The position numbers and the translations under genes were made by a program. A stretch of 28,980 nt of DNA. It comes from a virus (lineage: Duplodnaviria; Heunggongvirae; Uroviricota; Caudoviricetes). Of the stretch, positions 1 to 28,327 are shown one piece after another; within the stretch, counting starts at the first letter, position 1, and each line of letters begins with the position of its first letter. The notes below the pieces were generated by a model. The model was not told the origin of the DNA. It was given only the letters and a program-made list of their open reading frames with translations, and did not search any database. The stretch lies in IMG/VR virus record IMGVR_UViG_2574180275_000003. One strand, written 5' to 3'.

Positions 1-123
1 ACCAGCCCCCGACTGGCAGACACCGCTGAACGGGATTATTTCACCCTCAGAGAGCGGCTGATGACGATGCAGATGCAACTGGAAGGGGCACAGGAGTATA
101 TCCGCACTCAGTGCATTAAGTAG
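1..123 (+). CDS. hypothetical protein, C-terminal end only (5' part lies outside the window)
   Basis: Frame 1 is open from position 1 to TAG at 121-123 (41 codons, ...DYFTLRERLMTMQMQLEGAQEYIRTQCIK*); the other two plus frames hit stops early. No family recognised. Confidence 0.3.
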   Translation, partial: TSPRLADTAERDYFTLRERLMTMQMQLEGAQEYIRTQCIK

Positions 124-165
124 CCTTTTTATCGTGGTAAACATTTCGCAGGGTATGAGGTATTT

Positions 166-516
166 ATGCCATCACGAATCCCACGCGCCTGCCGTAAGCG
201 TGGATGTGCAGGTACAACCACAGACAGTTCTGGTTACTGCGATAAACATCGTGGCGAAGGATGGGTACAGCATCAACGCGGACTGAGCCGCCACCAGCGT
301 GGCTATGGCTCGAAATGGGATGCCATACGTGCGCGCATACTGAAGCGTGATAATCATCTGTGTCAGAACTGCCTGCGCAATGGGAGAGCCGTTGAAGCCA
401 GAACTGTGGACCACATCATTCCGAAAGCTCATGGTGGCACGGATGCAGACAGTAACCTGCAGAGTCTGTGCTGGCCCTGTCATAAAGCAAAAACAGCGCG
501 CGAACGCATCAATTGA
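166..516 (+). CDS. HNH endonuclease, phage packaging-associated
   Basis: 116 aa with Cys pairs and the motif DHIIPKAHGG...LCWPCH; GAGGT RBS 6 nt upstream of ATG; sits directly upstream of terS/terL as in HK97-like cos phages. Confidence 0.85.
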   Translation: MPSRIPRACRKRGCAGTTTDSSGYCDKHRGEGWVQHQRGLSRHQRGYGSKWDAIRARILKRDNHLCQNCLRNGRAVEARTVDHIIPKAHGGTDADSNLQSLCWPCHKAKTARERIN

Positions 517-664
517 TAACAGTTCCCATCTGTAGGGGAGGGGCGGGTCAAATCTCTGCAACCCTGGCTGCTCAGTACCGCCGCCTGACCCTTCCTCACA
601 TCGCCGCAGGTTCGAAAACTTTTTTTTGGAAATGTGAACAAACGATTGATAGGTAAGACCGATT
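517..664. promoter_or_regulatory. candidate cos / terminase recognition region of the prophage (HNH-terS spacer)
   Basis: Non-coding 148 bp between HNH and terS with a G-rich block (ggggaggggcgggtca), accgccgcctgaccc and a T8 run; same architecture as the HNH-terS spacer of the inserted element (14750-15037). Assignment by position only. Confidence 0.3.
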
Positions 665-1147
665 ATGTCAGGACCTCCGAAAACCCCGCCACGCCTGCAT
701 TTGATTCGAGGCAACCCCTCAAAGCGCCCCGTTAAAGACCACAAAAAAACCGCTAAAAAGGATGAAAAAGGTCTTCCTAAAATTCCGCAGCATTTAGGGG
801 CTCAGGGGAAGTACTGGTTCAGGCGAATGGCGGAAGAGCTGAATGCGGAAGGGATCATTTCTCAGCTTGATGCGCGTGCGCTCGAGTTGCTGGTGGAAGC
901 CTACACCGAATATCGGCATCACTGCGAAACACTCGATGTTGAGGGGTATACCTACCGCACGGAAACGCAGAGCGGTGATGTACTGATTAAGGCGCACCCC
1001 GCGGCGGCAATGAAAGCGGATGCCTGGAAGCGGATCCGGGCAATGCTTGCAGAGTTTGGTATGTCACCGGCAAGCCGGGCTAAAGTAAATATCGCCGGAC
1101 CGGATGATGTTGATCCGCTGGCGGAGCTTTTAAAAGCGAGAGACTGA
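665..1147 (+). CDS. terminase small subunit (P27-like family)
   Basis: 160 aa starting MSGPPKTPPRLHLIRGNPSKRP; stop overlaps the terL start (TGATG); paralogous to the second terS at 15038-15394. Confidence 0.8.
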   Translation: MSGPPKTPPRLHLIRGNPSKRPVKDHKKTAKKDEKGLPKIPQHLGAQGKYWFRRMAEELNAEGIISQLDARALELLVEAYTEYRHHCETLDVEGYTYRTETQSGDVLIKAHPAAAMKADAWKRIRAMLAEFGMSPASRAKVNIAGPDDVDPLAELLKARD

Positions 1148-2340
1148 TGGCAAAAGTGGCTGACGGGATCCGCTACGCCGAACGTGTTGTTGCAGGAGAA
1201 ATTGTTGCTGGCGAATTTGTCCGCCTGGCCTGCCAGCGTTTTCTTGATGATCTGAAGTACGGCGAAGAGCGGGGGATTTATTTCAGTGAACCCCGTGCGC
1301 AGCACATCCTGAATTTCTACAAATTTGTGCCTCATGTAAAAGGGGCGCTGGCAGGCCAGCCCATTGAGTTGATGGACTGGCATGTATTTATCCTCATTAA
1401 TATTTTTGGTTTTGTCATTCCGCTGGTCAATGAAGAGACCGGGGAAGTTGTCATGCGCAGCGATGGCAGCGGACGTCCGGTGATGGTGCGCCGGTTCCGG
1501 ACGGCGTACAACGAAGTCGCCCGTAAAAACGCAAAATCAACTCTGTCATCGGGTATCGGCCTGTATATGACGGGGGCAGATGGTGAAGGCGGAGCTGAGG
1601 TGTATTCAGCCGCAACCACGCGTGACCAGGCCAGAATCGTGTTTGAAGACGCCAAAAATATGGTCAGAAAAGCCCGGTCGACACTCGGGCGGTTGTTTGA
1701 TTTCAACAAGCTGGCGATTTACCAGGAGCAGAGCGCATCAAAATTTGAACCGCTTTCTTCGGATGCAAACAACCTGGATGGTCTGAACATCCACTGCGCC
1801 ATTATTGATGAGCTGCATGCACATAAAACTCGTGACGTGTGGGACGTTCTGGAAACGGCAACCGGTGCCCGTCTGCAGTCCCTTTTATTTGGTATCACCA
1901 CGGCAGGGTTTAACAAGGAAGGGATTTGTTACGAGCAGCGTGATTACGCCATCAAGGTATTGCGTGGCTATAACAGCGACGTGGAGGGCGCGGTAAAAGA
2001 CGACTCCTACTTTGCGATTATTTACACCCTCGATGAGGGAGATGATCCGTTTGATGAAACGGTCTGGCAGAAAGCGAATCCCGGCCTGGGCATCTGTAAA
2101 CGCTGGGATGATCTGCGTCGCCTGGCGAAAAAAGCGAAAGAACAGGTCTCTGCGCGGGTGAATTTTTTTACCAAGAAAGTAACATCACGCCGTAACAACA
2201 GTGCGACCTGTCCTGATTTTTTTAGTAACCAAATGAAAGAAAAAGATTTTTTCTTGTTCGTCGTTTTTGTTTTTTCTGGATGGTTCTGGCTGTTTTCATC
2301 ATTTGTGTATTGCACTGTGTATTGCAAAAACGGGTTATAA
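1147..2340 (+). CDS. terminase large subunit, N-terminal portion; ORF interrupted near 2172-2175 by the integrated element, last ~55 codons are read-through into element DNA
   Basis: Residues 1-342 align with the N-terminal half of the intact TerL at 15378-17039 (PHVKGALAGQPIEL / PHVKGAMRGSPIEL, ARKNAKST / PRKNAKST, RDQARIVFEDAK / RDQARIVFDDAR). After ...ARVNFFTK the translation becomes low-complexity (FLFVVFVFSGWFWLF) and the matching C-terminal half is found at 17561-18292. Confidence 0.8.
   Translation: MAKVADGIRYAERVVAGEIVAGEFVRLACQRFLDDLKYGEERGIYFSEPRAQHILNFYKFVPHVKGALAGQPIELMDWHVFILINIFGFVIPLVNEETGEVVMRSDGSGRPVMVRRFRTAYNEVARKNAKSTLSSGIGLYMTGADGEGGAEVYSAATTRDQARIVFEDAKNMVRKARSTLGRLFDFNKLAIYQEQSASKFEPLSSDANNLDGLNIHCAIIDELHAHKTRDVWDVLETATGARLQSLLFGITTAGFNKEGICYEQRDYAIKVLRGYNSDVEGAVKDDSYFAIIYTLDEGDDPFDETVWQKANPGLGICKRWDDLRRLAKKAKEQVSARVNFFTKKVTSRRNNSATCPDFFSNQMKEKDFFLFVVFVFSGWFWLFSSFVYCTVYCKNGL
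2168..2174. repeat. attL core (TTACCAA), left junction of the element
   Basis: Same 7-mer recurs at 17556-17562; in both copies ACC falls in the same terL codon phase (2170-2172 and 17558-17560). Confidence 0.6.
2305..2325 (+). promoter_or_regulatory. integrase arm-type binding repeats (left end)
   Basis: Tandem GTGTATTGCACTGTGTATTGC about 130 bp inside the left core and 20 bp upstream of int; near-identical copy at 17460-17480. Confidence 0.5.
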
Positions 2341-2345
2341 ATCAC

Positions 2346-3554
2346 ATGGCGCTAAACAAACTGAGCGATAAAAAACTTCGTTCCCTGCTTGGGCGCAGGA
2401 GTGAGAGGCAGGAAACCATCGCTGATGGTAACGGGCTTTCGGTACGGGTCAGTAAATACGGATGTGTTAGTTTTGTTTTCTTTTACAGACTGGCGGGAAG
2501 GGGAACCGCGCCCATCTGGCTGACACTTGGAAAATATCCTGATCTGAGTCTCAAATCAGCGAGAGAGATGCGCGATCAGTGTCGAACCTGGCTTGCGGAG
2601 GGCAGAGATCCACGGATTCAGATAAAAATTGAACGGGAAGCCACCTTGCAACCTGTTACCGTTCGTGAGGCACTTGAATACTGGCTTGATAATTATGCAA
2701 TGGATAAGCGTAGGGGAGCAGAACATATCAGGCAGTGCTTTGGTAAACATATTTATCCGGTGATTGGTCATGTACCACTTAGTGATTGCTCTATATCTAT
2801 GTGGATCAAGTGTTTTGACAAAATAAAAAAAGTAGCACCTGTACAGGCCGGAGCTTTGTTGCGTATATCAAAACAGGCGCTTAAATTTTGTAGGGTAAGA
2901 AAATACGCGATTAGTCATGAAATTGATGATCTTGAGGTCTGTGATGTGGGAAAAAAGTCTGCGCGAAGAAGCAGGGTTTTAACAGATGATGAAATCAGAG
3001 ATTTATGGCGAAGTATTAATACTGATTATGACAATCACGAATTATCATATGAAAACCGAATTATTTTACGTTTCCTGGTAGTTTTTGGTTGTCGACTGTC
3101 AGAAGTATTACTGTCGTCCTGGGTAGAGTGGGATTTTGATAAGAAATTATGGCGCGTTCCCGCTGATCATAGCAAAAATGGCAGGGAAATAATCAGACCG
3201 ATTCCTGATGGCATGTTTAACTGGTTAGTTACGTTAAAAAAAATAACAGGTAACAAAGAAAATGTGATTGGGTTTGATATGCGTCAGTGTACGGCAAGCG
3301 TAACTATCGGTAAGACATGGAAAAGGATGAAACACTCGGAAAAATGGACGGCGCATGATATGCGAAGAGTGTTTGCCACAAAGCTAAGTGATCATGGTTT
3401 TGAACATAATGTGGTTGAACAGTTGCTTGGGCACACATTAGGCGGTGTTGCCGGGGTTTATAACAGAAGTCAGTATATGGACAGAAAAAAAGAAGCTATG
3501 AACTGGTGGTACGACTATCTGAATAAGCTAATTAGTGGTGACGGTAATGATTGA
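2346..3554 (+). CDS. int: tyrosine site-specific integrase, P4-like with N-terminal arm-binding domain
   Basis: Start taken at internal ATG 2346 (MALNKLSDKKLRSLLG...), the usual integrase N-terminus; C-terminus has HDMRR...LLGHTLGGVAGVYNRSQY (catalytic His/Arg/Tyr). The track ORF starts at 2280 inside the att region. Confidence 0.9.
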   Translation: MALNKLSDKKLRSLLGRRSERQETIADGNGLSVRVSKYGCVSFVFFYRLAGRGTAPIWLTLGKYPDLSLKSAREMRDQCRTWLAEGRDPRIQIKIEREATLQPVTVREALEYWLDNYAMDKRRGAEHIRQCFGKHIYPVIGHVPLSDCSISMWIKCFDKIKKVAPVQAGALLRISKQALKFCRVRKYAISHEIDDLEVCDVGKKSARRSRVLTDDEIRDLWRSINTDYDNHELSYENRIILRFLVVFGCRLSEVLLSSWVEWDFDKKLWRVPADHSKNGREIIRPIPDGMFNWLVTLKKITGNKENVIGFDMRQCTASVTIGKTWKRMKHSEKWTAHDMRRVFATKLSDHGFEHNVVEQLLGHTLGGVAGVYNRSQYMDRKKEAMNWWYDYLNKLISGDGND

Positions 3555-3768
3555 AATAGTTACGCGTGAAGAACTTGAAAATGATAAAACAATCGACAGG
3601 ATGATTAAGGAAGATGAATGTGCATGGTTAACAGCTCTTGGCAGGAGACACAGAGCATTACTTGAAAAGGAAGGAAAATTTCCACGGAAAATATGTATTG
3701 GCCCACAAACAAAAGTCTGGCGCTTATCTGAGGTGCTGGAATGGGTAAAGGGTGAATGGAAACCCTGA
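3547..3768 (+). CDS. alpA: AlpA-family transcriptional regulator / excisionase-like protein
   Basis: About 73 aa with ...LLEKEGKFPRKICIGPQTKVWRLSEVLEWV, the AlpA/Xis HTH pattern; start overlaps the int stop; followed by a terminator. Confidence 0.65.
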   Translation: MIEIVTREELENDKTIDRMIKEDECAWLTALGRRHRALLEKEGKFPRKICIGPQTKVWRLSEVLEWVKGEWKP

Positions 3769-3791
3769 ACTAAATTAAATGAGATATAATC

Positions 3792-3817
3792 AACCCGTCT
3801 TTTGGCGGGTTTTTTTA
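3792..3817 (+). terminator. Rho-independent terminator-like hairpin after alpA
   Basis: AACCCG-(8 nt loop)-CGGGTT followed by a T7 run. Confidence 0.5.
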
Positions 3818-3831
3818 TAGGTGATATTTTT

Positions 3832-4110
3832 ATGCAAAAATTTATTTATCCTACACCCGAAGAACGCATTCAGATTCTGAAAGATCATGGCGAACCGTAT
3901 GATCGCCGTATACGCGAACATGAGTGTGCCAATCGTACCGGGCTTTCAAGAAGCAGACGTTGGGTACTTGAACAGGAGGGAGCATTTCCTGCTCGTGCTC
4001 ATTTAGGGAAAGTGTCTGTTTCCTGGTTGCTCTCTGATGTGCTCTGGTGGGTTATGCATCCGCCAGGAGTAAAGGAAGTAAACAGCCCATACAAAAACGC
4101 CAATAAGTAA
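3832..4110 (+). CDS. second AlpA-like HTH regulator
   Basis: 92 aa from ATG 3832 (GGTGA RBS 7 nt upstream); contains TGLSRSRRWVLEQEGAFPARAHLGKVSVSWLLSDVLWWV, resembling the AlpA HTH region. Confidence 0.5.
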   Translation: MQKFIYPTPEERIQILKDHGEPYDRRIREHECANRTGLSRSRRWVLEQEGAFPARAHLGKVSVSWLLSDVLWWVMHPPGVKEVNSPYKNANK

Positions 4111-4118
4111 TTACCGAC

Positions 4119-4148
4119 AACCCCGCACCACGCAATGCGGGGTTTTTT
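4119..4148 (+). terminator. Rho-independent terminator-like hairpin
   Basis: AACCCCGCA-(7 nt)-TGCGGGGTT followed by TTTTTTG. Confidence 0.55.
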
Positions 4149-4167
4149 GTATGTGAGGTAGAAAGTG

Positions 4168-4746
4168 ATGAATAAAAATATTGCCGTGACGGGCAAGGGT
4201 GACGCACGTCATGTGAAAAAATTCTGTGATATTCGTGATCTGGTCGTTCTGCGCTTTGATGGCGTGGATGTTCGTGTGGTGTATCTAAACGGCGATCCGT
4301 GGTTTGTTGCAAAGGATGTTTGTGCTGCGCTGGAACTGACCAATTCGCGTACGGCGTTGCAGATGCTTGATGATGACGAAAAGGGAGTAAATTTAACTTA
4401 CACCCCCGGAGGAAATCAGAATATGAGCATTATCTCCGAGTCAGGTTTCTACAAACTAATAGCCCGCAGCCGCAAAGCAACGACGCCTGGCACATTTGCT
4501 CATCGTTTCAGTAACTGGGTATTCAGAAATGTGATACCGGGTATCAGAAAAACGGGGGCTTATGGTATCCCGTGGGGCGCATTACAGGATTTTTCCCGCC
4601 GCAAAGAGCAATACCAGATAAGTGCCAGTGAGAAGGGGAGGGAGCTACAGGCATGTAAGCGCAAAAAGCGTGAGCTGGAGGAAGAAGAAAAAAGGCTGAT
4701 ACGTGAATACCAGCCTGAGTTTTACTTTGGTGAGCGTATTCAGTAA
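4168..4746 (+). CDS. Bro-N domain protein (antirepressor-like)
   Basis: 192 aa; N-terminal RFDGVDVRVVYLNGDPWFVAKDVCAALEL...ISESGFYKLIARSRK matches the Bro-N pattern; GAGGTAG RBS 6 nt upstream of ATG 4168. Confidence 0.7.
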   Translation: MNKNIAVTGKGDARHVKKFCDIRDLVVLRFDGVDVRVVYLNGDPWFVAKDVCAALELTNSRTALQMLDDDEKGVNLTYTPGGNQNMSIISESGFYKLIARSRKATTPGTFAHRFSNWVFRNVIPGIRKTGAYGIPWGALQDFSRRKEQYQISASEKGRELQACKRKKRELEEEEKRLIREYQPEFYFGERIQ

Positions 4747-5032
4747 CCACACGCGGTGTTGATTATACGGTACATCGTGTTGACCGGGAAGCTACCCACC
4801 AGCAAGGCAAAATCTTCTGCTAAAAAATGACATATGGCCAGTCGTCCGGAAAGCATGAAATTTTACAAAAATGGAAAATGAAGATTTTTATTGTGCTGGT
4901 GGGTAAAAACAAAAAGCGCCCCGTTGCCGGAGCGCCCTTGCGAACAATTAACCTACTGCGCAAAAAATGAATCTGTGCGGGGGAATTATATCAACCGCGT
5001 GGAGAAGCGCCACAATTGCCGAATAACAGGCA

Positions 5033-5061
5033 AAACAAAGGCCACCCGCTACGGTGGCCCT
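5033..5061 (-). terminator. terminator-like hairpin for leftward transcription
   Basis: Perfect inverted repeat GGCCACC-cgctac-GGTGGCC at 5042-5061; on the minus strand it is followed by TTTGTTTTG. Confidence 0.4.
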
Positions 5062-5098
5062 TCAACACAAGCTACACGTTATCCCCAACGCATGAGCA

Positions 5099-5311
5099 TT
5101 ACCGACAATGCCACATTTGCGGCTGGTGGGCAATGTGATCAGTCAGATTTGGTTCGTTCCAAGGTTTGCAACGAGAGCTTTTCCTGTGCTCTTTAAGGAA
5201 TTGCTCAAGGGCAAAAGCACATGGCGCGAATCTTTCTGATTCATGCTCTATCTTTCTGCGCCGTCTTTTCCGTGTCGGTGATAATGTTTTGGTCAATTCT
5301 TTATCGGTCAT
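5099..5311 (-). CDS. hypothetical small basic protein (start at MTDKE...)
   Basis: 70 codons with AGGA 7 nt upstream of the ATG at 5311-5309; lies between the Arc-like gene and the minus-strand hairpin. No family recognised. Confidence 0.3.
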   Translation of the reverse strand: MTDKELTKTLSPTRKRRRRKIEHESERFAPCAFALEQFLKEHRKSSRCKPWNEPNLTDHIAHQPQMWHCR

Positions 5312-5368
5312 TGTGTTGTCCTGCATAGCAATGCGCCGTAATACCTTACACCACGGCGCTGGTGATGG

Positions 5369-5674
5369 TTATTCCTGCTCTTTGGCCTTGCGACGCTGGA
5401 GTTCTTCACGTGCGACGGTGACGAGCTGCCCGATCTCCTCGACAGCTTTGACTCCGATTTTTTCCACCTGCGCCAGCGCATCGAGCGAAGAAACCAGGGG
5501 ATTTTCTCCGCTTCCTTCTGCCTGGCGGCGGGCGATCTCACCGCGTACAGCCGTAACTATAAAATTCGCTTTAGTTTCCCCTGGCTGTAGGGATGCCTCA
5601 ATGCCACTCACTACTTCATGTGGAAATCTGGCATTCAGTTGCTGTGATTTATTGTTAACAGAACTCGTGGACAT
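5369..5674 (-). CDS. Arc/MetJ-type ribbon-helix-helix DNA-binding protein (candidate repressor of the element)
   Basis: Start at internal ATG 5674-5672 with GGAGGTG RBS; N-terminus ...QQLNARFPHEVVSGIEASL resembles the Arc beta-strand motif (FNLRWPREV); divergent from the rightward replication operon. Confidence 0.55.
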   Translation of the reverse strand: MSTSSVNNKSQQLNARFPHEVVSGIEASLQPGETKANFIVTAVRGEIARRQAEGSGENPLVSSLDALAQVEKIGVKAVEEIGQLVTVAREELQRRKAKEQE

Positions 5675-5717
5675 GTTTGCACCTCCGATTAATAACGGGA
5701 TGCAGTGTAATACAAAA

Positions 5718-5772
5718 GTGAATACCAAAAAAGACTTGAAATGGTATTCACCAAAATGTAATCTGAATACCA
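5718..5772. promoter_or_regulatory. operator-like inverted repeats in the divergent promoter region
   Basis: GTGAATACCA (5718-5727) and its reverse complement TGGTATTCAC (5742-5751), plus a third half-site TGAATACCA (5764-5772), 45-100 bp upstream of the Arc-like start. Confidence 0.45.
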
Positions 5773-5873
5773 CAAGGGCTGATACATGCAATTCAGCAAT
5801 TGAAACGACGAAGCCCCGCACTGTTGGAGCAGTAACGGGGCTTCTAACCAAACCGTTAACTGGAGTAACGATT

Positions 5874-6074
5874 ATGGCTGTAAGACAGCATACCCCACGA
5901 CTTGCGCACACACAAACGGTCTTTGTGTGGCGTTTTCTGGCACTAAGTGCCGGAGAATCTCAAATCGTCCACGTAACCGCCTGGACGGAACGCGAAGCGC
6001 GTAACCGTTGCCCGTCCGGTTGTGTCGCTGTATTCGCCGCCCGTATTCGTCAGGGGGTGCGCCATGTGCAATAA
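5874..6074 (+). CDS. Icd-like small protein (host cell division inhibitor-like family of P4-type elements)
   Basis: 66 aa from ATG 5874 (GGAG about 8 nt upstream): MAVRQHTPRLAHTQTVFVWRFLAL...TAWTEREARNRCPSGCVAVFAARI, matching my memory of Icd-like proteins. It is the 3' end of the long track ORF 5166-6074, whose 5' part is antisense to the Arc-like gene. Confidence 0.45.
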   Translation: MAVRQHTPRLAHTQTVFVWRFLALSAGESQIVHVTAWTEREARNRCPSGCVAVFAARIRQGVRHVQ

Positions 6075-6303
6075 AAACACGCCGGACGCAGCCGCCGAAG
6101 CCATCAAAACGCTAATGCACGCGCTGATTGATATTTCATGCACGGCAGCAACCGCAGAAAAACACATTACCAGAGAGCCGGAATATACAGGGGCGATAAT
6201 CCCGCATTCACTGGCATACGCACAGCTTACCGCTGATATGGCACTGAATGAGGCCAGGGCTATCCTGATTGCTGATTGTGAAAATGGGGGGGGTTATGCG
6301 TGA
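6064..6303 (+). CDS. hypothetical protein
   Basis: 79 aa from ATG 6064 (AGGGGGTG upstream); overlaps neighbours on both sides, suggesting operon coupling. Confidence 0.4.
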   Translation: MCNKNTPDAAAEAIKTLMHALIDISCTAATAEKHITREPEYTGAIIPHSLAYAQLTADMALNEARAILIADCENGGGYA

Positions 6304-6529
6304 TGATCGTTTTAATGCCCTGAAACAGGAATTTGATGGCGCACCGGAACATACAGGCGATGCGTTGTTATGCGTTGCCGACATGATGAAAGCCGCATTT
6401 TTTCTTATCAGTACCAGTGGCTACAGGTCAGAGGGTGTGGAGATTCTCAATATTGCGTCGGACTATGCGGAATATGTTGCAGAGGCGCGTTACAGAAGAA
6501 AATTCCCGGAGGATGTAAGCCATGGATAA
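6296..6529 (+). CDS. hypothetical protein
   Basis: 77 aa from ATG 6296 preceded by a G7 run; overlaps the previous stop. Confidence 0.4.
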   Translation: MRDDRFNALKQEFDGAPEHTGDALLCVADMMKAAFFLISTSGYRSEGVEILNIASDYAEYVAEARYRRKFPEDVSHG

Positions 6530-6665
6530 AATCCCTTTCGATGTTCTTATTCATTCTGAGAATGCATTAATCAGGGCGCTTGAATTAAAAACGGTACTGG
6601 ATGAATTAACCGAAAATAACACCGAGCGGGGGGGTATTTACTTTCTGCTTTCAGCACTCTGTTAA
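6522..6665 (+). CDS. hypothetical small protein (47 aa)
   Basis: ATG 6522 with GGAGGA 9 nt upstream, overlapping the previous stop; MDKIPFDVLIHSENALIRALELKTVLDELTENNTERGGIYFLLSALC. Below the ORF track size cutoff. Confidence 0.25.
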   Translation: MDKIPFDVLIHSENALIRALELKTVLDELTENNTERGGIYFLLSALC

Positions 6666-6735
6666 CCCCGGTTATTGATGAATTAAACGCGGTTATGGAA
6701 ATGCACGACAAGACCCGCGCAGAGGAATAAAAACC

Positions 6736-7050
6736 ATGAAAAAGAAAAATTCTGGCTTTACTGCCAGCGGCCTCCCTCGGCCTGAAATCCGCCCCGACGA
6801 TATTTTCAAAGATAAATACGGCGGACGAATAACGATAAAAACCGTTGACGATTTTCGCGTGACTTATATCCGCGAAGGTTATGCGCATCCCTGCGTGTCG
6901 TCTCATATGCGTTTTGAGAGTGAATTCACCCTGGTAAGCAAAGCACCACCAGCGAACTTAAGCGACATCGACAGAATCATGCGCGTTACAGGTATGGAAC
7001 GCATTAAGGCAGTACGTGAAATTATTCGTGAACGGGGAAAGGCAAAATGA
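6736..7050 (+). CDS. hypothetical protein (possibly DUF4222-like), coupled to the primase gene
   Basis: 104 aa; GAGGAA RBS 8 nt upstream; stop overlaps the primase start (ATGA). Family call is a tentative recollection. Confidence 0.45.
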   Translation: MKKKNSGFTASGLPRPEIRPDDIFKDKYGGRITIKTVDDFRVTYIREGYAHPCVSSHMRFESEFTLVSKAPPANLSDIDRIMRVTGMERIKAVREIIRERGKAK

Positions 7051-23265: not shown

Positions 23266-23288
23266 GATCGTTAATGATTTTCCCCCCC

Positions 23289-23315
23289 CGCCGCTGGCGG
23301 GTTTTTTTATTTTCA
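23289..23315 (+). terminator. terminator-like hairpin upstream of the major tail protein gene
   Basis: CCCGCC-gct-GGCGGG followed by TTTTTTTATTTT. Confidence 0.45.
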
Positions 23316-23325
23316 GGAGACGAGT

Positions 23326-24030
23326 ATGTCCTCTAATTTTGAACGTTCTCAGCAGACCAAAGTCATGATCTCGTCTGCACCGGTAACGGCAGAAACGCTG
23401 AGTTCTGCCAGTTTTCTTGAACTGAGCTGTACGATTAAAGAGGTTCAGTTTACCGCCGGGCAGAAACAGGATATTGATGTCACCACGCTGTGTTCTGTTG
23501 AGCAGGAAAATATTAACGGTCTTGGTGCCGCGTCAGAGATTTCCATGTCAGGCAACTTTTATCTGAATGCTGCCCAGAACGCGTTGCGCAGTGCCTATGA
23601 CAATGACACCACGTATGGCTTTAAAGTTATTTTTCCGTCAGGCAACGGATTTACCTTTATGGCAGAGGTGCGTCAGCATACCTGGTCTGCAGGAACCAAT
23701 GGAGTTGTGGCTGCAACGTTTTCCCTGCGCCTGAAAGGTAAACCTGTACTGACGACAGAGCCACTGAAAGTGAAGGTCGATTTAAACAGCACGCTGCAGG
23801 TTTCTGCCGGAGCGAAACTCGAAATGGTGGTTGAGGCTGCCGGTGGTGTGCCGCCTTATTCTTATGTCTGGAAGAAAGGTGGTTCTCCTGTTTCCGGACA
23901 GACGGCGGCAACGTTCAGTAAGGCATCAGCAGCATCCGGTGATGCCGGTGCGTATACCTGCGAGATTTCTGATTCAGCAAGCCCGGTTAGCAAGGTGACC
24001 TCCACTTCCTGCACTGTTACCGTCAGTTAA
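23326..24030 (+). CDS. major tail protein with C-terminal Ig-like domain
   Basis: 234 aa; GGAG RBS; position before the chaperone/tape-measure genes; C-terminal about 90 aa has an Ig-like signature (...YSYVWKKGGSPVSGQTAATF...GAYTCEISD). Confidence 0.7.
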   Translation: MSSNFERSQQTKVMISSAPVTAETLSSASFLELSCTIKEVQFTAGQKQDIDVTTLCSVEQENINGLGAASEISMSGNFYLNAAQNALRSAYDNDTTYGFKVIFPSGNGFTFMAEVRQHTWSAGTNGVVAATFSLRLKGKPVLTTEPLKVKVDLNSTLQVSAGAKLEMVVEAAGGVPPYSYVWKKGGSPVSGQTAATFSKASAASGDAGAYTCEISDSASPVSKVTSTSCTVTVS

Positions 24031-24044
24031 TGAGGATAGATGTG

Positions 24045-24416
24045 ATGACTAAAAATATCCGTAATCTGGCACTGGCAACGATGTCGGGGTTTCGCCATAA
24101 AACTGTTGATGTGCCTGAATGGGAAGGGGCAACGGTTGTATTACGGGAACCTTCTGCAGAAGCCTGGTTGCGCTGGCAGGAGATCGTTAAAGCAAAAGAT
24201 GATGAGACACCGTTATCCGTTGCGGAGCGCGCCCGCCGAAATCTGGAGGCAGATGTTGAACTGTTCATTGATGTTCTGTGTGATACCGGACTGCAACCTG
24301 TATTTTCAGAGGATGATCGTGAACAGGTGATTGCCGTGTATGGCCCGGTGCATGCGCGGCTTCTTCGGCAGTCTCTGGAACTGATCAGTGATGCCGGTGA
24401 GGTTAAAAAAAAGTAG
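24045..24416 (+). CDS. tail assembly chaperone (lambda gpG analogue)
   Basis: Position between major tail and tape measure genes; ends with the slippery heptamer A AAA AAG. Start at ATG 24045 (GAGGA RBS) or at 24030 (TAATG overlap). Confidence 0.6.
   Translation: MTKNIRNLALATMSGFRHKTVDVPEWEGATVVLREPSAEAWLRWQEIVKAKDDETPLSVAERARRNLEADVELFIDVLCDTGLQPVFSEDDREQVIAVYGPVHARLLRQSLELISDAGEVKKK
24407..24413 (+). other. programmed -1 ribosomal frameshift site (A AAA AAG) for the chaperone G-T fusion
   Basis: Slippery heptamer is in frame with the upstream ORF and lies directly before its stop; the -1 frame continues ...KK-VALPG-MRFLMM... into ORF 24428-24718. Confidence 0.55.
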
Positions 24417-24427
24417 CGCTTCCGGGG

Positions 24428-24718
24428 ATGCGTTTTCTGATGATGCTGGCGCTCAGGATGGGGCGCACATTGTCAGAGTTACGCCGGGAAATGTCCGCAT
24501 CAGAAATCATGATGTGGGCAGAATTTGACAGGTTCAGCCCGCTGGGTGACGAGCGGGCTGATATCCGGGCTGCCCAGATAGTTTCTGCGGTTTACGGTGC
24601 GCAGGGTGTCAAAGTCCCACTGAATGATGCGCTTCTTCAGTGGGAGAAGGAGCAGACAGAAGGCGTATCAGATCCATTTGCCGGACTGGAAAACGCGCTT
24701 TTAATAGTGTCTCAGTGA
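24428..24718 (+). CDS. tail assembly chaperone T-domain ORF (expressed as G-T frameshift fusion)
   Basis: 96-codon ORF in the -1 frame relative to the upstream chaperone; MRFLMMLALRMGRTLSELRREMSASEIMMWAEF... resembles the conserved T-domain of lambda-type gpGT. Confidence 0.55.
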   Translation: MRFLMMLALRMGRTLSELRREMSASEIMMWAEFDRFSPLGDERADIRAAQIVSAVYGAQGVKVPLNDALLQWEKEQTEGVSDPFAGLENALLIVSQ

Positions 24719-24728
24719 GTCAACATAA

Positions 24729-24749
24729 CCGCTTCGGCGGTTTTTTTTT
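24729..24749 (+). terminator. intrinsic terminator-like hairpin between chaperone and tape-measure genes
   Basis: ACCGC-ttcg-GCGGT (UUCG tetraloop) followed by a T9 run. Confidence 0.5.
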
Positions 24750-24765
24750 CGTCCGGAGAATGAGT

Positions 24766-27700
24766 GTGGCGACATTACGTGAACTGATTATTAAAATCTC
24801 GGCAAATTCCCGGTCATTCCAGTCAGAGATCTCCCGGGCTTCGCGTATGGGGCAGGATTACTACCGTACCATGCAGAACGGAGGCCGGCAGTCCGCTGCT
24901 GCATCCCGTGAAATGCGGCGTGCACTGGCAGAAGTGACGGATCAGATAAATACAGCTAAATCTTCGGCACTGAATATGGCGGGGGCATTTGCCGGAGCTT
25001 TTGCTACCGGTCATCTTATTTCTCTCGCCGATGAGTGGAATTCAGTAAATGCCCGTCTGAAGCAGGCTTCACAGTCCAGTGATGATTTTCAGGTATCACA
25101 ACGTGAATTAATGGCAATCAGCCAGAGAACGGGAACGGCGTTTTCTGATAACGCCAGCCTTTTTGCCCGCTCTGCAGCTTCCATGCGGGAGTATGGCTAC
25201 AGTTCTGAGGAGGTACTGAAAGTCACCGAGGCGATCTCCACGGGCCTGAAATTATCCGGTGCCAGTACAGCAGAAGCCAGTTCGGTGATCACGCAGTTCA
25301 GTCAGGCACTGGCGCAGGGAGTGCTGCGCGGTGAAGAATTTAACTCTGTGAATGAGAACGGCGATCGTGTTATTCGTGCGCTGGCTGCGGGAATGGGTGT
25401 TACCCGTAAGGATCTGAAGGCCATGGCGGATAACGGAAAACTGACCGCCGATAAGGTTGTTCCTGCACTGATTAGTCAGCTTGGGGCGTTGCGTGATGAA
25501 TATGCAGCAATGCCTGATACTGTTTCATCCTCTGCAACCAAAGTTGAAAACGCCTTTATGGCCTGGGTTGGTGGTGCGAACGAGGCAAGCGGAGTGACAA
25601 AGACACTCACCGGGGTGTTGAATGGTGTTGCAGACAATATTGATACCGTGGCTGCTGCAGCTGGCGCACTGGTTGCCGTCGGGGTAGCCCGATATTTTGG
25701 CAATATGGCGTCGTCTGCTGGATCTGCAACTGCCGGATTAATTACTGCAGCCAGAAACGAAGTGGCTCTTGCTGAAGCGCAACTTCGGGGGACTCAGATA
25801 GCAACCGCCAGGGCGCGTGCGGCGGTTTATCGTGCGCAACAGGCGGTTGTTGCTGCTCGCGGTACCGAAAGGCAGGCCGCAGCAGAAGCGAAGCTGACAG
25901 CTGCCCAGGCGTCACTTACCCGTAATATTGCGGCCAGAACAGCGGCACAGACAACGCTGAATACTGTCACGTCAGTGGGGAGTCGTCTGTTAAGTGGTGC
26001 GCTGGGGTTGGTTGGTGGTGTGCCGGGACTCGTCATGCTGGGGGCGACGGCCTGGTACACGATGTATCAGAATCAGGAGCAGGCCAGAGAATCTGCACGC
26101 CAGTATGCCGCAACAATCGACGAAATTCGCCAGAAAACGTCGGCAATGTCGCTTCCTGAAGCGTCAGATAATGAGGAAAAGACGCGGCAGGCACTTGATG
26201 AGCAAAACAGGTTAATTGACGAGCAGAAAAGTAAGATTAAATCCTTACAGGAAAAAATTGCTGGCTATCAGTATGTGCTGGCAAACCCGGGCTGGACAAC
26301 CGATAACGGTTTTATGATTAACCACATGACGTCGGTAAAAACTGTCACAGAAGGGCTTGCAGAAGCAACAAATCAACTGGCAGTTGAACAGTCCCGTCTC
26401 ACACAAATGCAGGGCAAAGCGCAATCCATTCAGGATGTGCTTGCCGGGTTGGAGGAGCGACGGGTGGCGTTGATCCGTCAACAGGCCGCTGAACAAAACA
26501 AAGCGTATCAGTCCCTGTTGATCATGAATGGGCAGCATACCGAGTTTAATCGCCTTCTCGGGCTCGGTAATGAATTACTTCAGCAGCGACAGGGGCTGGT
26601 GAATGTACCGTTACGGCTACCACAGGCAACCCTGGATGATAAACAGCAGACTGCACTGAATAACAGCGAGCGCGAACTGGCTCTGTCCCGCCTGAAGGGG
26701 GAGGCCCGTGAGCGTGCCCGCCTGGGTTATGCTGCGGATGATCTCGGCTTTGTGGGAGAGGCGTATCAGACAGCCAGACAGAATTATATCAATAACTCAC
26801 TGGATGCCTGGCGAAATAACCAGGCAAATAAACCCAAAGCGCATAAAAAGACCGAAGCGGAAAAAACAGAAGATATTTATAAACGGCTGATTAAACAGCA
26901 AAAAGAACAAATAGCACTGGCAGGGCAGAATACTGAACTGGCTAAGATGAAATATCAGGTCAGTCAGGGCGAATTATCAACCCTGTCAGAAGCGCAGAAA
27001 AAAACGCTTTTGCAGAATGCAGCACTCATCGACCAGAAAAAGATTCGTGAGCAGCTTGCTGCGTATGAGAGCAGTCTGGCGGACAGTAATGCCAGTGCCC
27101 GGGCATCTGACGAAGCGCAGTTGTTGGGATATGGTGAAGGCTCACGGATGCGTGAACGACTCCAGGAAATGTGGAGTATCCGGCAGGCGTTTGAGCAGAA
27201 AAATAACGAGCTGCTGAGACAGTATCAGGCCGGAGAAATTGAAGAAGCCCTGTGGAAACAGGAGAAAGAACTGAATAAAAAATATCTGGAAGAGCGTCTC
27301 AGCGATCAGCAGGATTATTATGCAAAGGCCGATGCTTTACGTAATAACTGGAATGCCGGACTCCAGGAGGGACTGACCAACTGGGCAGACAGTGCCACCG
27401 ATTATGCTTCACAGGCGGCAGATGCTGTCGTTTCTACGATGGACGGGCTGGTATCAAATATTTCCGATGCACTGGCCGGGAATGTTGTGGACTGGAGGAA
27501 CTGGGGGAGTTCAGTTCTCCGGGAAGTTTCAAAAATTCTGATGAATGCAGCCATTGTTAACGGACTGAAATCACTCTCCGGTGCCGGAGGGTGGCTTGGT
27601 ACGGTCGGCGGATGGATTTTGGGGGCAGTGGCAAACGCAAAAGGTGGTGTTTACACATCGGCAAATCTGAGTGCTTACAGTAACACTATTGTGGATACAC

Positions 27701-27993
27701 CGACGTATTTTGCTTTTGCGAAAGGTGCCGGGTTGATGGGCGAGGCCGGGCCTGAAGCAATCATGCCACTGACACGGGCAGCGGACGGCTCTCTTGGGGT
27801 CAGGGCCATTGGAAATGTGAATGGTGGCGGTGGATTTGTTTATTCTCCCGTGTATCACATCAGCATTCAGAATCAAGGGAGCAATGGCGAGATAGATGCG
27901 CGCTCAGCCAGGGGACTGGTGGATCTGATCGACAGCAGGGTTGTGTCAATTATGCAGTCATCGCGTCGGGATGGAGGATTGTACAGTGCCTGA
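24766..27993 (+). CDS. tail tape measure protein
   Basis: About 1075 aa, Ala/Gln-rich and coiled-coil-like, in the canonical position; start taken at GTG 24766 (GGAG 7 nt upstream) rather than the track ATG at 24640, which overlaps the chaperone ORF. Confidence 0.85.
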   Translation: MATLRELIIKISANSRSFQSEISRASRMGQDYYRTMQNGGRQSAAASREMRRALAEVTDQINTAKSSALNMAGAFAGAFATGHLISLADEWNSVNARLKQASQSSDDFQVSQRELMAISQRTGTAFSDNASLFARSAASMREYGYSSEEVLKVTEAISTGLKLSGASTAEASSVITQFSQALAQGVLRGEEFNSVNENGDRVIRALAAGMGVTRKDLKAMADNGKLTADKVVPALISQLGALRDEYAAMPDTVSSSATKVENAFMAWVGGANEASGVTKTLTGVLNGVADNIDTVAAAAGALVAVGVARYFGNMASSAGSATAGLITAARNEVALAEAQLRGTQIATARARAAVYRAQQAVVAARGTERQAAAEAKLTAAQASLTRNIAARTAAQTTLNTVTSVGSRLLSGALGLVGGVPGLVMLGATAWYTMYQNQEQARESARQYAATIDEIRQKTSAMSLPEASDNEEKTRQALDEQNRLIDEQKSKIKSLQEKIAGYQYVLANPGWTTDNGFMINHMTSVKTVTEGLAEATNQLAVEQSRLTQMQGKAQSIQDVLAGLEERRVALIRQQAAEQNKAYQSLLIMNGQHTEFNRLLGLGNELLQQRQGLVNVPLRLPQATLDDKQQTALNNSERELALSRLKGEARERARLGYAADDLGFVGEAYQTARQNYINNSLDAWRNNQANKPKAHKKTEAEKTEDIYKRLIKQQKEQIALAGQNTELAKMKYQVSQGELSTLSEAQKKTLLQNAALIDQKKIREQLAAYESSLADSNASARASDEAQLLGYGEGSRMRERLQEMWSIRQAFEQKNNELLRQYQAGEIEEALWKQEKELNKKYLEERLSDQQDYYAKADALRNNWNAGLQEGLTNWADSATDYASQAADAVVSTMDGLVSNISDALAGNVVDWRNWGSSVLREVSKILMNAAIVNGLKSLSGAGGWLGTVGGWILGAVANAKGGVYTSANLSAYSNTIVDTPTYFAFAKGAGLMGEAGPEAIMPLTRAADGSLGVRAIGNVNGGGGFVYSPVYHISIQNQGSNGEIDARSARGLVDLIDSRVVSIMQSSRRDGGLYSA

Positions 27994-28327
27994 GCCTGAA
28001 GTTTTTAACTGGATCCCCCGAGAGGGGATGGAGACGACACGAAAGCCATCAGTTATTACGGTAAAGTTTGGTGACGGATATGAACAGCGACGGGCTGGTG
28101 GTCTGAATGCGGATCTGAAAACGTTTAAACCGGTATTTCGTGTCACAGATGAATATTCCCGTGCCGCGCTGGACAGTTTTTTATCCCGTCATGCCGGGAT
28201 TCGTGCTTTTTTGTGGCGTCCGCCAAAACACAACAGGACTGTCCGGGTTGTCTGCAGGGAGTGGAGCATTTCGGATAATGCCATGTATACCGATTTTAAC
28301 TGTACCTTTGAAGAGGTCACTCACTGA
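27986..28327 (+). CDS. minor tail protein, lambda gpM-like
   Basis: Contains VKFGDGYEQRRAGGLNADLKTF...FLWRPP, closely matching lambda M (VRFGDGYSQRAPAGLNANLKTY...FLWTPP); GTG 27986 with GGAGG RBS preferred over ATG 27941/27971. Confidence 0.85.
   Translation: MPEPEVFNWIPREGMETTRKPSVITVKFGDGYEQRRAGGLNADLKTFKPVFRVTDEYSRAALDSFLSRHAGIRAFLWRPPKHNRTVRVVCREWSISDNAMYTDFNCTFEEVTH

Follow-up and report, generated by a model that had tools for sequence, protein, structure and literature searches.

The analysis concerned a stretch of 28,980 nucleotides (nt) of phage DNA, IMG/VR virus record IMGVR_UViG_2574180275_000003 (Caudoviricetes). This whole stretch is called the window, and all positions are counted from its first letter. 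The locus at 24045-24718 was very probably a programmed -1 frameshift in an HK97-like Escherichia coli prophage, by which a tail assembly chaperone of 123 amino acids (aa) and a G-T fusion protein of 224 aa would be made. The system is already known and the locus is a routine member of it; its close homologue in phage HK97 has already been annotated as frameshifted.

Junction of the two frames and slip site

The G-like tail assembly chaperone gene (HK97 gp13 family) was placed at 24045..24416 on the plus strand by its open reading frame (ORF) and by family matches. It encoded 123 aa, with the C-terminus ...DAGEVKKK. The region 24396-24430 read GGT GAG GTT AAA AAA AAG TAG CGCTTCCGGGG ATG. Sequence and frame placed the slippery heptamer A_AAA_AAG (24407-24413, plus strand) in X_XXY_YYZ register with the G frame, inside a plus-strand run of eight A (24405-24412) whose length differed among database copies (A7, A8 and A9) and where transcriptional slippage may make a minor contribution. 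The heptamer was immediately followed by the TAG stop of the G frame (24414-24416, plus strand). Read in the -1 frame, the sequence had a TAA (24404-24406, plus strand) that shut this frame right 5' of the heptamer, and from 24407 the -1 frame was free of stops up to the TGA at 24716-24718. The overlap of the two frames was exactly the 7 nt of the heptamer, which was therefore the sole place where a -1 shift could link the G and T frames.

An earlier, sequence-only reading of the window had reported that the upstream ORF ended in GTT AAA AAA AAG TAG, with A AAA AAG at 24407-24413 in slippery phase, and that the -1 frame was open from the slip site into the ORF at 24428-24718. Both observations were confirmed. 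The same reading had proposed a G-T-like fusion with the junction ...GEVKK-VALPG. The join itself stood, as a predicted product of 224 aa, and the junction had to be corrected: GTA (24413-24415) is the codon read after the -1 shift, all three Lys are incorporated before it, and the fusion reads ...GEVKKK-VALPGMRFLMM....

The segment read in the -1 frame after the shift (24413..24718, plus strand) had 101 aa, comprised the linker VALPG and the T domain, and ended at the TGA at 24716-24718. The T ORF counted from its own ATG occupied 24428-24718 on the plus strand, in the ORF list as well as in public annotation. The virtual fusion was written as join(24045..24413, 24413..24718).

The heptamer AAAAAAG occurred 15 times on both strands of the window, compared with 7.65 expected, and none of 100 shuffles reached 15. 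The excess was mostly on the plus strand of the first 15 kb (1-15100). Four copies in the window were in the A_AAA_AAG phase of a long plus-strand ORF. The -1 frame after the copy at 24407 ran for 101 codons; after those at 2951, 10085 and 15028 it ran for 10, 7 and 13 codons. These three copies were rejected as additional frameshift sites because their -1 extensions had just 7-13 codons. The copy at 10085 was one codon ahead of the stop of the ORF 9807-10097.

Family membership of the G and T products

The G protein matched PF06222 (Phage_TAC_1) at 2.4e-58 and 195.9 bits (cut-off 25), over positions 1-123 of 124, and phrog_344 (tail assembly chaperone) at 1.2e-44. Its only solved relative was PDB 2OB9 'Tail assembly chaperone' (4.6e-49), which is gp13 of phage HK97 (PMC9603447). 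No match of the G protein to the lambda gpG family was found, and a Pfam scan at E ≤ 0.01 gave PF06222 alone. The G protein would be gpG-like in function, yet it is not detectably a member of the gpG sequence family.

The ATG at 24045 was most likely the start of the G gene, judging from the GAGGA that precedes it and from the same start in the RefSeq annotation of a 99.3% identical E. coli locus. An alternative in-frame start, the ATG at 24030, would give 128 aa.

The T ORF matched PF06223 (Phage_tail_T, 'Minor tail protein T') at 3.5e-19 and 69.4 bits (cut-off 25.9) over residues 23-91. The virtual fusion matched phrog_14766, a profile of 224 positions, over positions 1-220 at 3.4e-92. Given this end-to-end match, phage annotation already contains a family made of full-length fusions. 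Among the NCBIfam models, none matched G, T or the fusion.

Comparison of related loci

The comparison covered 50 loci drawn from different bacterial species, with 46-70% identity across G, as well as 80 viral contigs and the phages HK97, HK75, Bcep176 and phi1026b. Frames were counted over the 137 loci having both parts, which contained 59 distinct junction sequences. Relative to G, T was in the -1 frame in 131 of the 137 loci and in 54 of the 59 distinct junctions. The remaining loci had A7 (L100, L105 and L122), one A fewer (L026), A9 (L049) or an upstream indel (L017); that is, the exceptions were changes of run length right at the slip site, apart from the upstream indel of L017. The site and the frame relation were kept down to about 46% protein identity, and to about 30% in Burkholderia phages.

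The distance from the slip site to the T domain was constant in 55 of the 59 distinct junctions, with K followed by V-x-x-P-G-x-x-F-L-M. The aligned heptamer was AAAAAAG in 38 of the 59, GGAAAAG (the HK97 type) in 6, AGCAAAG in 5 and GGCAAAG in 4; AGAAAAG and AAAAAAA occurred once each. In the other four junctions, small indels had displaced A_AAG or AAAAAAG by one to three codons. The element kept across the 59 distinct junctions was A_AAG (A_AAA in one), at the aligned position or at most 3 codons from it. HK97 (L137, 1330-1362) and loci L004, L006, L009, L013 and L018 had G_GAA_AAG, which is no canonical X_XXY_YYZ, or just GCA AAG TAA.

The stop of G followed the slip site directly in 39 of the 54 distinct -1 junctions; in the rest it came 4-9 codons later, with the site unmoved. 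An overlap of exactly 7 nt was found here and in 15 of the 54. The distance from A_AAG to the T domain stayed fixed even though the G stop shifted 12-27 nt downstream. The match to the conserved gpG/gpGT frameshift claimed by the sequence-only reading was thus upheld in gene order, in the -1 frame, in the phased slip site and in conservation among diverged homologues.

Conservation of the linker in the -1 frame

The linker was read in 48 distinct, indel-free junctions. In the T frame, the codon within the heptamer was AAA in 48/48, the codon after the heptamer encoded Val in 45/48, and Pro stood three codons beyond this Val in 47/48, written with four codons (CCG/CCC/CCT/CCA = 15/15/9/8). A stop within 11 codons past the site was found in 0/48 junctions in the T frame and in 48/48 in the G frame. 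On these codon counts, the conservation of the linker beyond the G stop is a signature of protein-level selection in the -1 frame.

The ATG used in public records as the start of 'protein T' (24428..24430, plus strand) was abutted by GGGG with no spacer. The codon aligned to 24428 was ATG or GTG in 19 of the 48 junctions, and otherwise ACN, GTA, ATA or ATT. Even close relatives with 78-99% identity (L104, L123 and L132) had a non-start codon at this position. Because initiation there is impossible in most relatives, the linker must be reached from G.

Proposed mechanism and known systems

According to the frameshift reading, most ribosomes would translate 24045-24416 and halt at the TAG, giving the 123-aa chaperone, and a minority would slip back by one base on A_AAA_AAG (24407-24413), where the single E. 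coli tRNA-Lys could re-pair from AAA-AAG to AAA-AAA. The shifted ribosomes would then read GTA GCG CTT CCG GGG ATG... up to the TGA at 24716-24718, giving the 224-aa G-T fusion. By analogy with lambda gpG and gpGT, the role of the G part may be to bind the tape measure protein, and that of the T part to recruit the major tail protein; the slip frequency would set a fixed, low proportion of G-T, which would be what tail assembly needs. We infer that the shift takes place, mainly by the ribosomal route and at a low level, and that its products act in assembly.

The slip site of lambda is G_GGA_AAG, with a shift level of roughly 3-4%; its tail assembly is blocked when GT is lost and also when GT is in excess. 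Low-level -1 frameshifting in lambda yields gpG and gpGT in a ratio of about 30:1; the tape measure protein is the binding partner of G, the major tail subunit that of T, and G-T frameshifting is broadly conserved across long-tailed double-stranded DNA phages (PMC5009743). The locus analyzed here shared with lambda the gene order, a -1 shift close to where G ends that would give a rare G-T fusion, and a T part belonging to PF06223. It differed from lambda in its slip site and in its G part, which was not detectably of the gpG family.

Phage HK97 gp13/gp13-14 (NC_002167, HK97p12/HK97p11) was a close homologue. Both parts belonged to the same families as here, with about 61-69% identity for the HK97-type relatives; the pair likewise stood after the major tail gene and ahead of the tape measure gene, the -1 relation was present, and the distance from slip site to T was equal. 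The RefSeq record of HK97 lists gp13 and a joined coding sequence (CDS) 'translated due to a -1 frameshift'. HK97 has G_GAA_AAG at the aligned position, and its G frame runs five codons longer (SQPPA) before TAA, whereas the locus here has a canonical heptamer, A_AAA_AAG, and its G stop comes immediately behind it. In HK97 and HK75 a moron gene, gp15, stands between T and the tape measure gene (1704-1892 in L137, the HK97 locus); here this interval was a 41-nt spacer (24719-24759) without a gene, holding only a terminator-like hairpin.

A distant homologue, gp69/gp69' of Burkholderia phage Bcep176, had about 36% identity to the fusion and AAAAAAG at the junction. In the Bcep176 record, gp69' is a joined CDS with the description 'alternative C-terminus for gp69; lambda T equivalent'. 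Bcep176 differed in having a longer G (154 aa) and a stop farther from the slip site.

The heptamer A_AAA_AAG is the dnaX site, and of the heptamers tested in E. coli it shifts far more readily than the others; A_AAG is a minimal -1 shift site there (PMC5009743). The locus shared with dnaX the identical A_AAA_AAG and the same single E. coli tRNA-Lys (PMC5009743). It differed in that the shift of about 50% in dnaX is assisted by an upstream Shine-Dalgarno (SD)-like element and a downstream stem-loop (PMC5009743), whereas no conserved downstream structure was found here.

Search for stimulatory elements

Folding of four windows around 24380-24500 was no better than that of shuffled sequences (z from -0.07 to -1.57), and RNAalifold on 23 diverse junctions gave 0 consensus pairs. 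A search of 24200-24800 against Rfam at permissive E-values gave no frameshift element, only matches at chance level; the best scores were 15.7 bits, compared with a gathering threshold of 58, and 14.4 bits for isrK, compared with 50. Neither part of a dnaX-type stimulated cassette, a stem-loop 5-9 nt downstream and an SD-like element about 10 nt upstream, was found at this locus.

Two candidate stimulators were rejected. The hairpin GCGCUC/GGGCGC at about 24449-24466 lay 36 nt from the site and was broken in several relatives (L028 and L020). The sole SD-like string, GGTGAGG (24396-24402), was separated from the heptamer by 4 nt, a spacing too small for a dnaX-type effect, and was not conserved. 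As no conserved stimulatory RNA structure was found, the heptamer, possibly aided by the adjacent stop, was taken as the whole signal.

Alternative routes to the G and T products

Several points weigh against the frameshift reading. The whole case was drawn from sequence; RNA polymerase slippage on the run of eight A could yield an identical protein; public records of near-identical loci show a pair of unjoined CDS; residue 5 of T (24440) was an invariant Met (48/48); and there was no conserved hairpin or pseudoknot, which fits a low-level shift and lends it no positive support. If polymerase slippage were the main route, an extra A on 24405-24412 would give GTT AAA AAA AAA GTA GCG... and the same 224-aa fusion. 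This was considered unlikely. There are documented bacterial cases of transcriptional slippage on A/T runs (PMC5009743), and the A9 DNA alleles do encode exactly the 224-aa fusion, but the eight A here fall short of the runs of 9 A or T cited for bacteria (PMC5009743) and of the length of about 9 or more expected of a programmed transcriptional slippage site. Moreover, many relatives keep the arrangement of G with T in the -1 frame on GCA AAG, GAA AAG or GGA AAA G, that is, on 3-4 A, where polymerase slippage is implausible, so what is conserved is the ribosomal A_AAG and not a long homopolymer. Mass spectrometry of the junction peptide would not separate ribosomal from transcriptional slippage, because the protein is the same either way.

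A reading in which no fusion is made, T arises only as a separate product whose translation begins at the ATG at 24428 or the Met at 24440, either by weak initiation or when ribosomes reinitiate after the TAG, and the heptamer is incidental, was given very low probability. It agrees with the existence of the ATG at 24428, with public separate CDS of 96 or 92 aa, with the invariant Met at residue 5, and with the eleven bases between the TAG (24414-24416) and this ATG, a short distance that would permit coupling. However, the position of 24428 was not a start codon in 29 of the 48 distinct junctions, and GGGG touching the ATG is all that precedes it. The Val and the Pro ahead of the invariant Met, conserved in the -1 frame as counted above, are sensible only if translated. 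The -1 relation in 131/137 loci, the fixed distance of A_AAG from T despite a moving G stop, and the annotation of the HK97 homologue as a frameshift product also stand against it. Some independent initiation or reinitiation of free T at Met 24440 may occur beside the frameshift, although separate initiation there would leave the conserved linker unexplained. Slippage in the P site alone ('shifty stop'), with AAG in the P site and a slow TAG in the empty A site, would give the same product as the tandem shift and seemed scarcely more than a marginal candidate. The TAG does adjoin the heptamer, as the stop adjoins the site in 39 of the 54 distinct -1 junctions; relatives that have just A_AAG and TAA (GCA AAG TAA) lack a tandem site, and a minimal -1 site is how A_AAG has been described (PMC5009743). 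In 15 of the 54 junctions, however, the G stop lies 4-9 codons past an unchanged site, so an adjacent stop is not required in the family. Sequence cannot separate P-site-only from tandem slippage.

Variants of the A run

The exact 224-aa fusion was present in the protein collection as CDK90654.1, KZP42445.1 and STQ49536.1. It was encoded by 19 contigs, and all 8 of those fetched (L138-L145) had nine A, that is, an in-frame G-T gene; assemblies with A9 include GCA_001676985.1 and GCA_001630975.1. Among the IMG/VR stretches sharing this sequence context, 107 carried A8, 6 carried A7 and none A9. With A7 (L100, L105, L122 and L146-L151), T was in the +1 frame and G was lengthened to 160 aa. The A7 and A9 forms could equally be real alleles, homopolymer sequencing errors or decay of cryptic prophages.

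A speculative reading, held to be quite improbable, would give the A8 run a triple role as ribosomal slip site, site of minor transcriptional slippage and mutable homopolymer, with A7 and A9 as real variants of a tail switch resembling phase variation. If it were true, A8 would give G and rare GT, A9 the GT fusion only and A7 a dead-end extension of G, and a widespread E. coli prophage would have an on/off switch of tail production.

Distribution and public annotation

Eleven phage records of E. coli, among them phi467, Evi and vB_EcoS-689R5, were 97-99% identical to a stretch of 731 bp at this locus. The locus was found in 901 of 5,426 complete E. coli genomes and was chromosomal every time. 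The three records inspected in detail had separate CDS and no ribosomal-slippage join. The RefSeq genome was labelled 'phage tail assembly chaperone' and 'phage tail assembly protein T', phage Evi had two CDS, each named 'Phage tail assembly chaperone', and in vB_EcoM-606R7 the region was cut into three CDS fragments. The feature names in the match tables of phages and E. coli genomes likewise denoted separate products, and some database copies of T were named 'DUF4035 domain-containing protein'. The start of T in public records varied between the ATG at 24428 (96 aa) and Met 5 (92 aa).

The value of the finding is chiefly one of annotation, as this common E. coli prophage had no joined 224-aa product in the records inspected. 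Recognition of the frameshift would correct the prophage proteome and provide a simple marker (A8 versus A7/A9) for an intact chaperone pair. Nothing new is added to recoding biology.

Tail module neighbourhood

The G and T ORFs were flanked 5' by the major tail gene and 3' by the tape measure gene. The gene of the major tail protein (23326..24030, plus strand) was assigned by phrog_158 at 2.5e-108 and had a C-terminal Ig-like domain (Ig_2 and Ig_3). The Ig_2, Ig_3 and Hoc-like PHROG matches covered residues ~145-234 of the protein, whose start was annotated in two ways in relatives, giving 234 or 251 aa. The tape measure gene (24760..27993, plus strand; 1077 aa) matched PF06120 Phage_HK97_TLTM (1e-93), PF20155, PF09718 and phrog_339, and its protein carried both HK97-type and lambda-type tape measure domains. 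A small ORF (27941-28327) followed 3' of the tape measure gene, and then an open frame that left the end of the window.

The tail module was intact as far as the window shows. That it is functional, as the sequence-only reading had held, is weakly suggested by the intact ORFs and by A8 being the common allele.

A terminator-like hairpin with a T run (AACCGCTTCGGCGGTT; 24727..24751, plus strand) lay between the T stop and the start of the tape measure gene. A second hairpin with a T run, resembling an intrinsic terminator, was found at 23287-23311, just 5' of the major tail gene. The records of HK97 and HK75 have putative terminators annotated at places corresponding to both hairpins, which suggests that these are conserved attenuation points in the tail operon.

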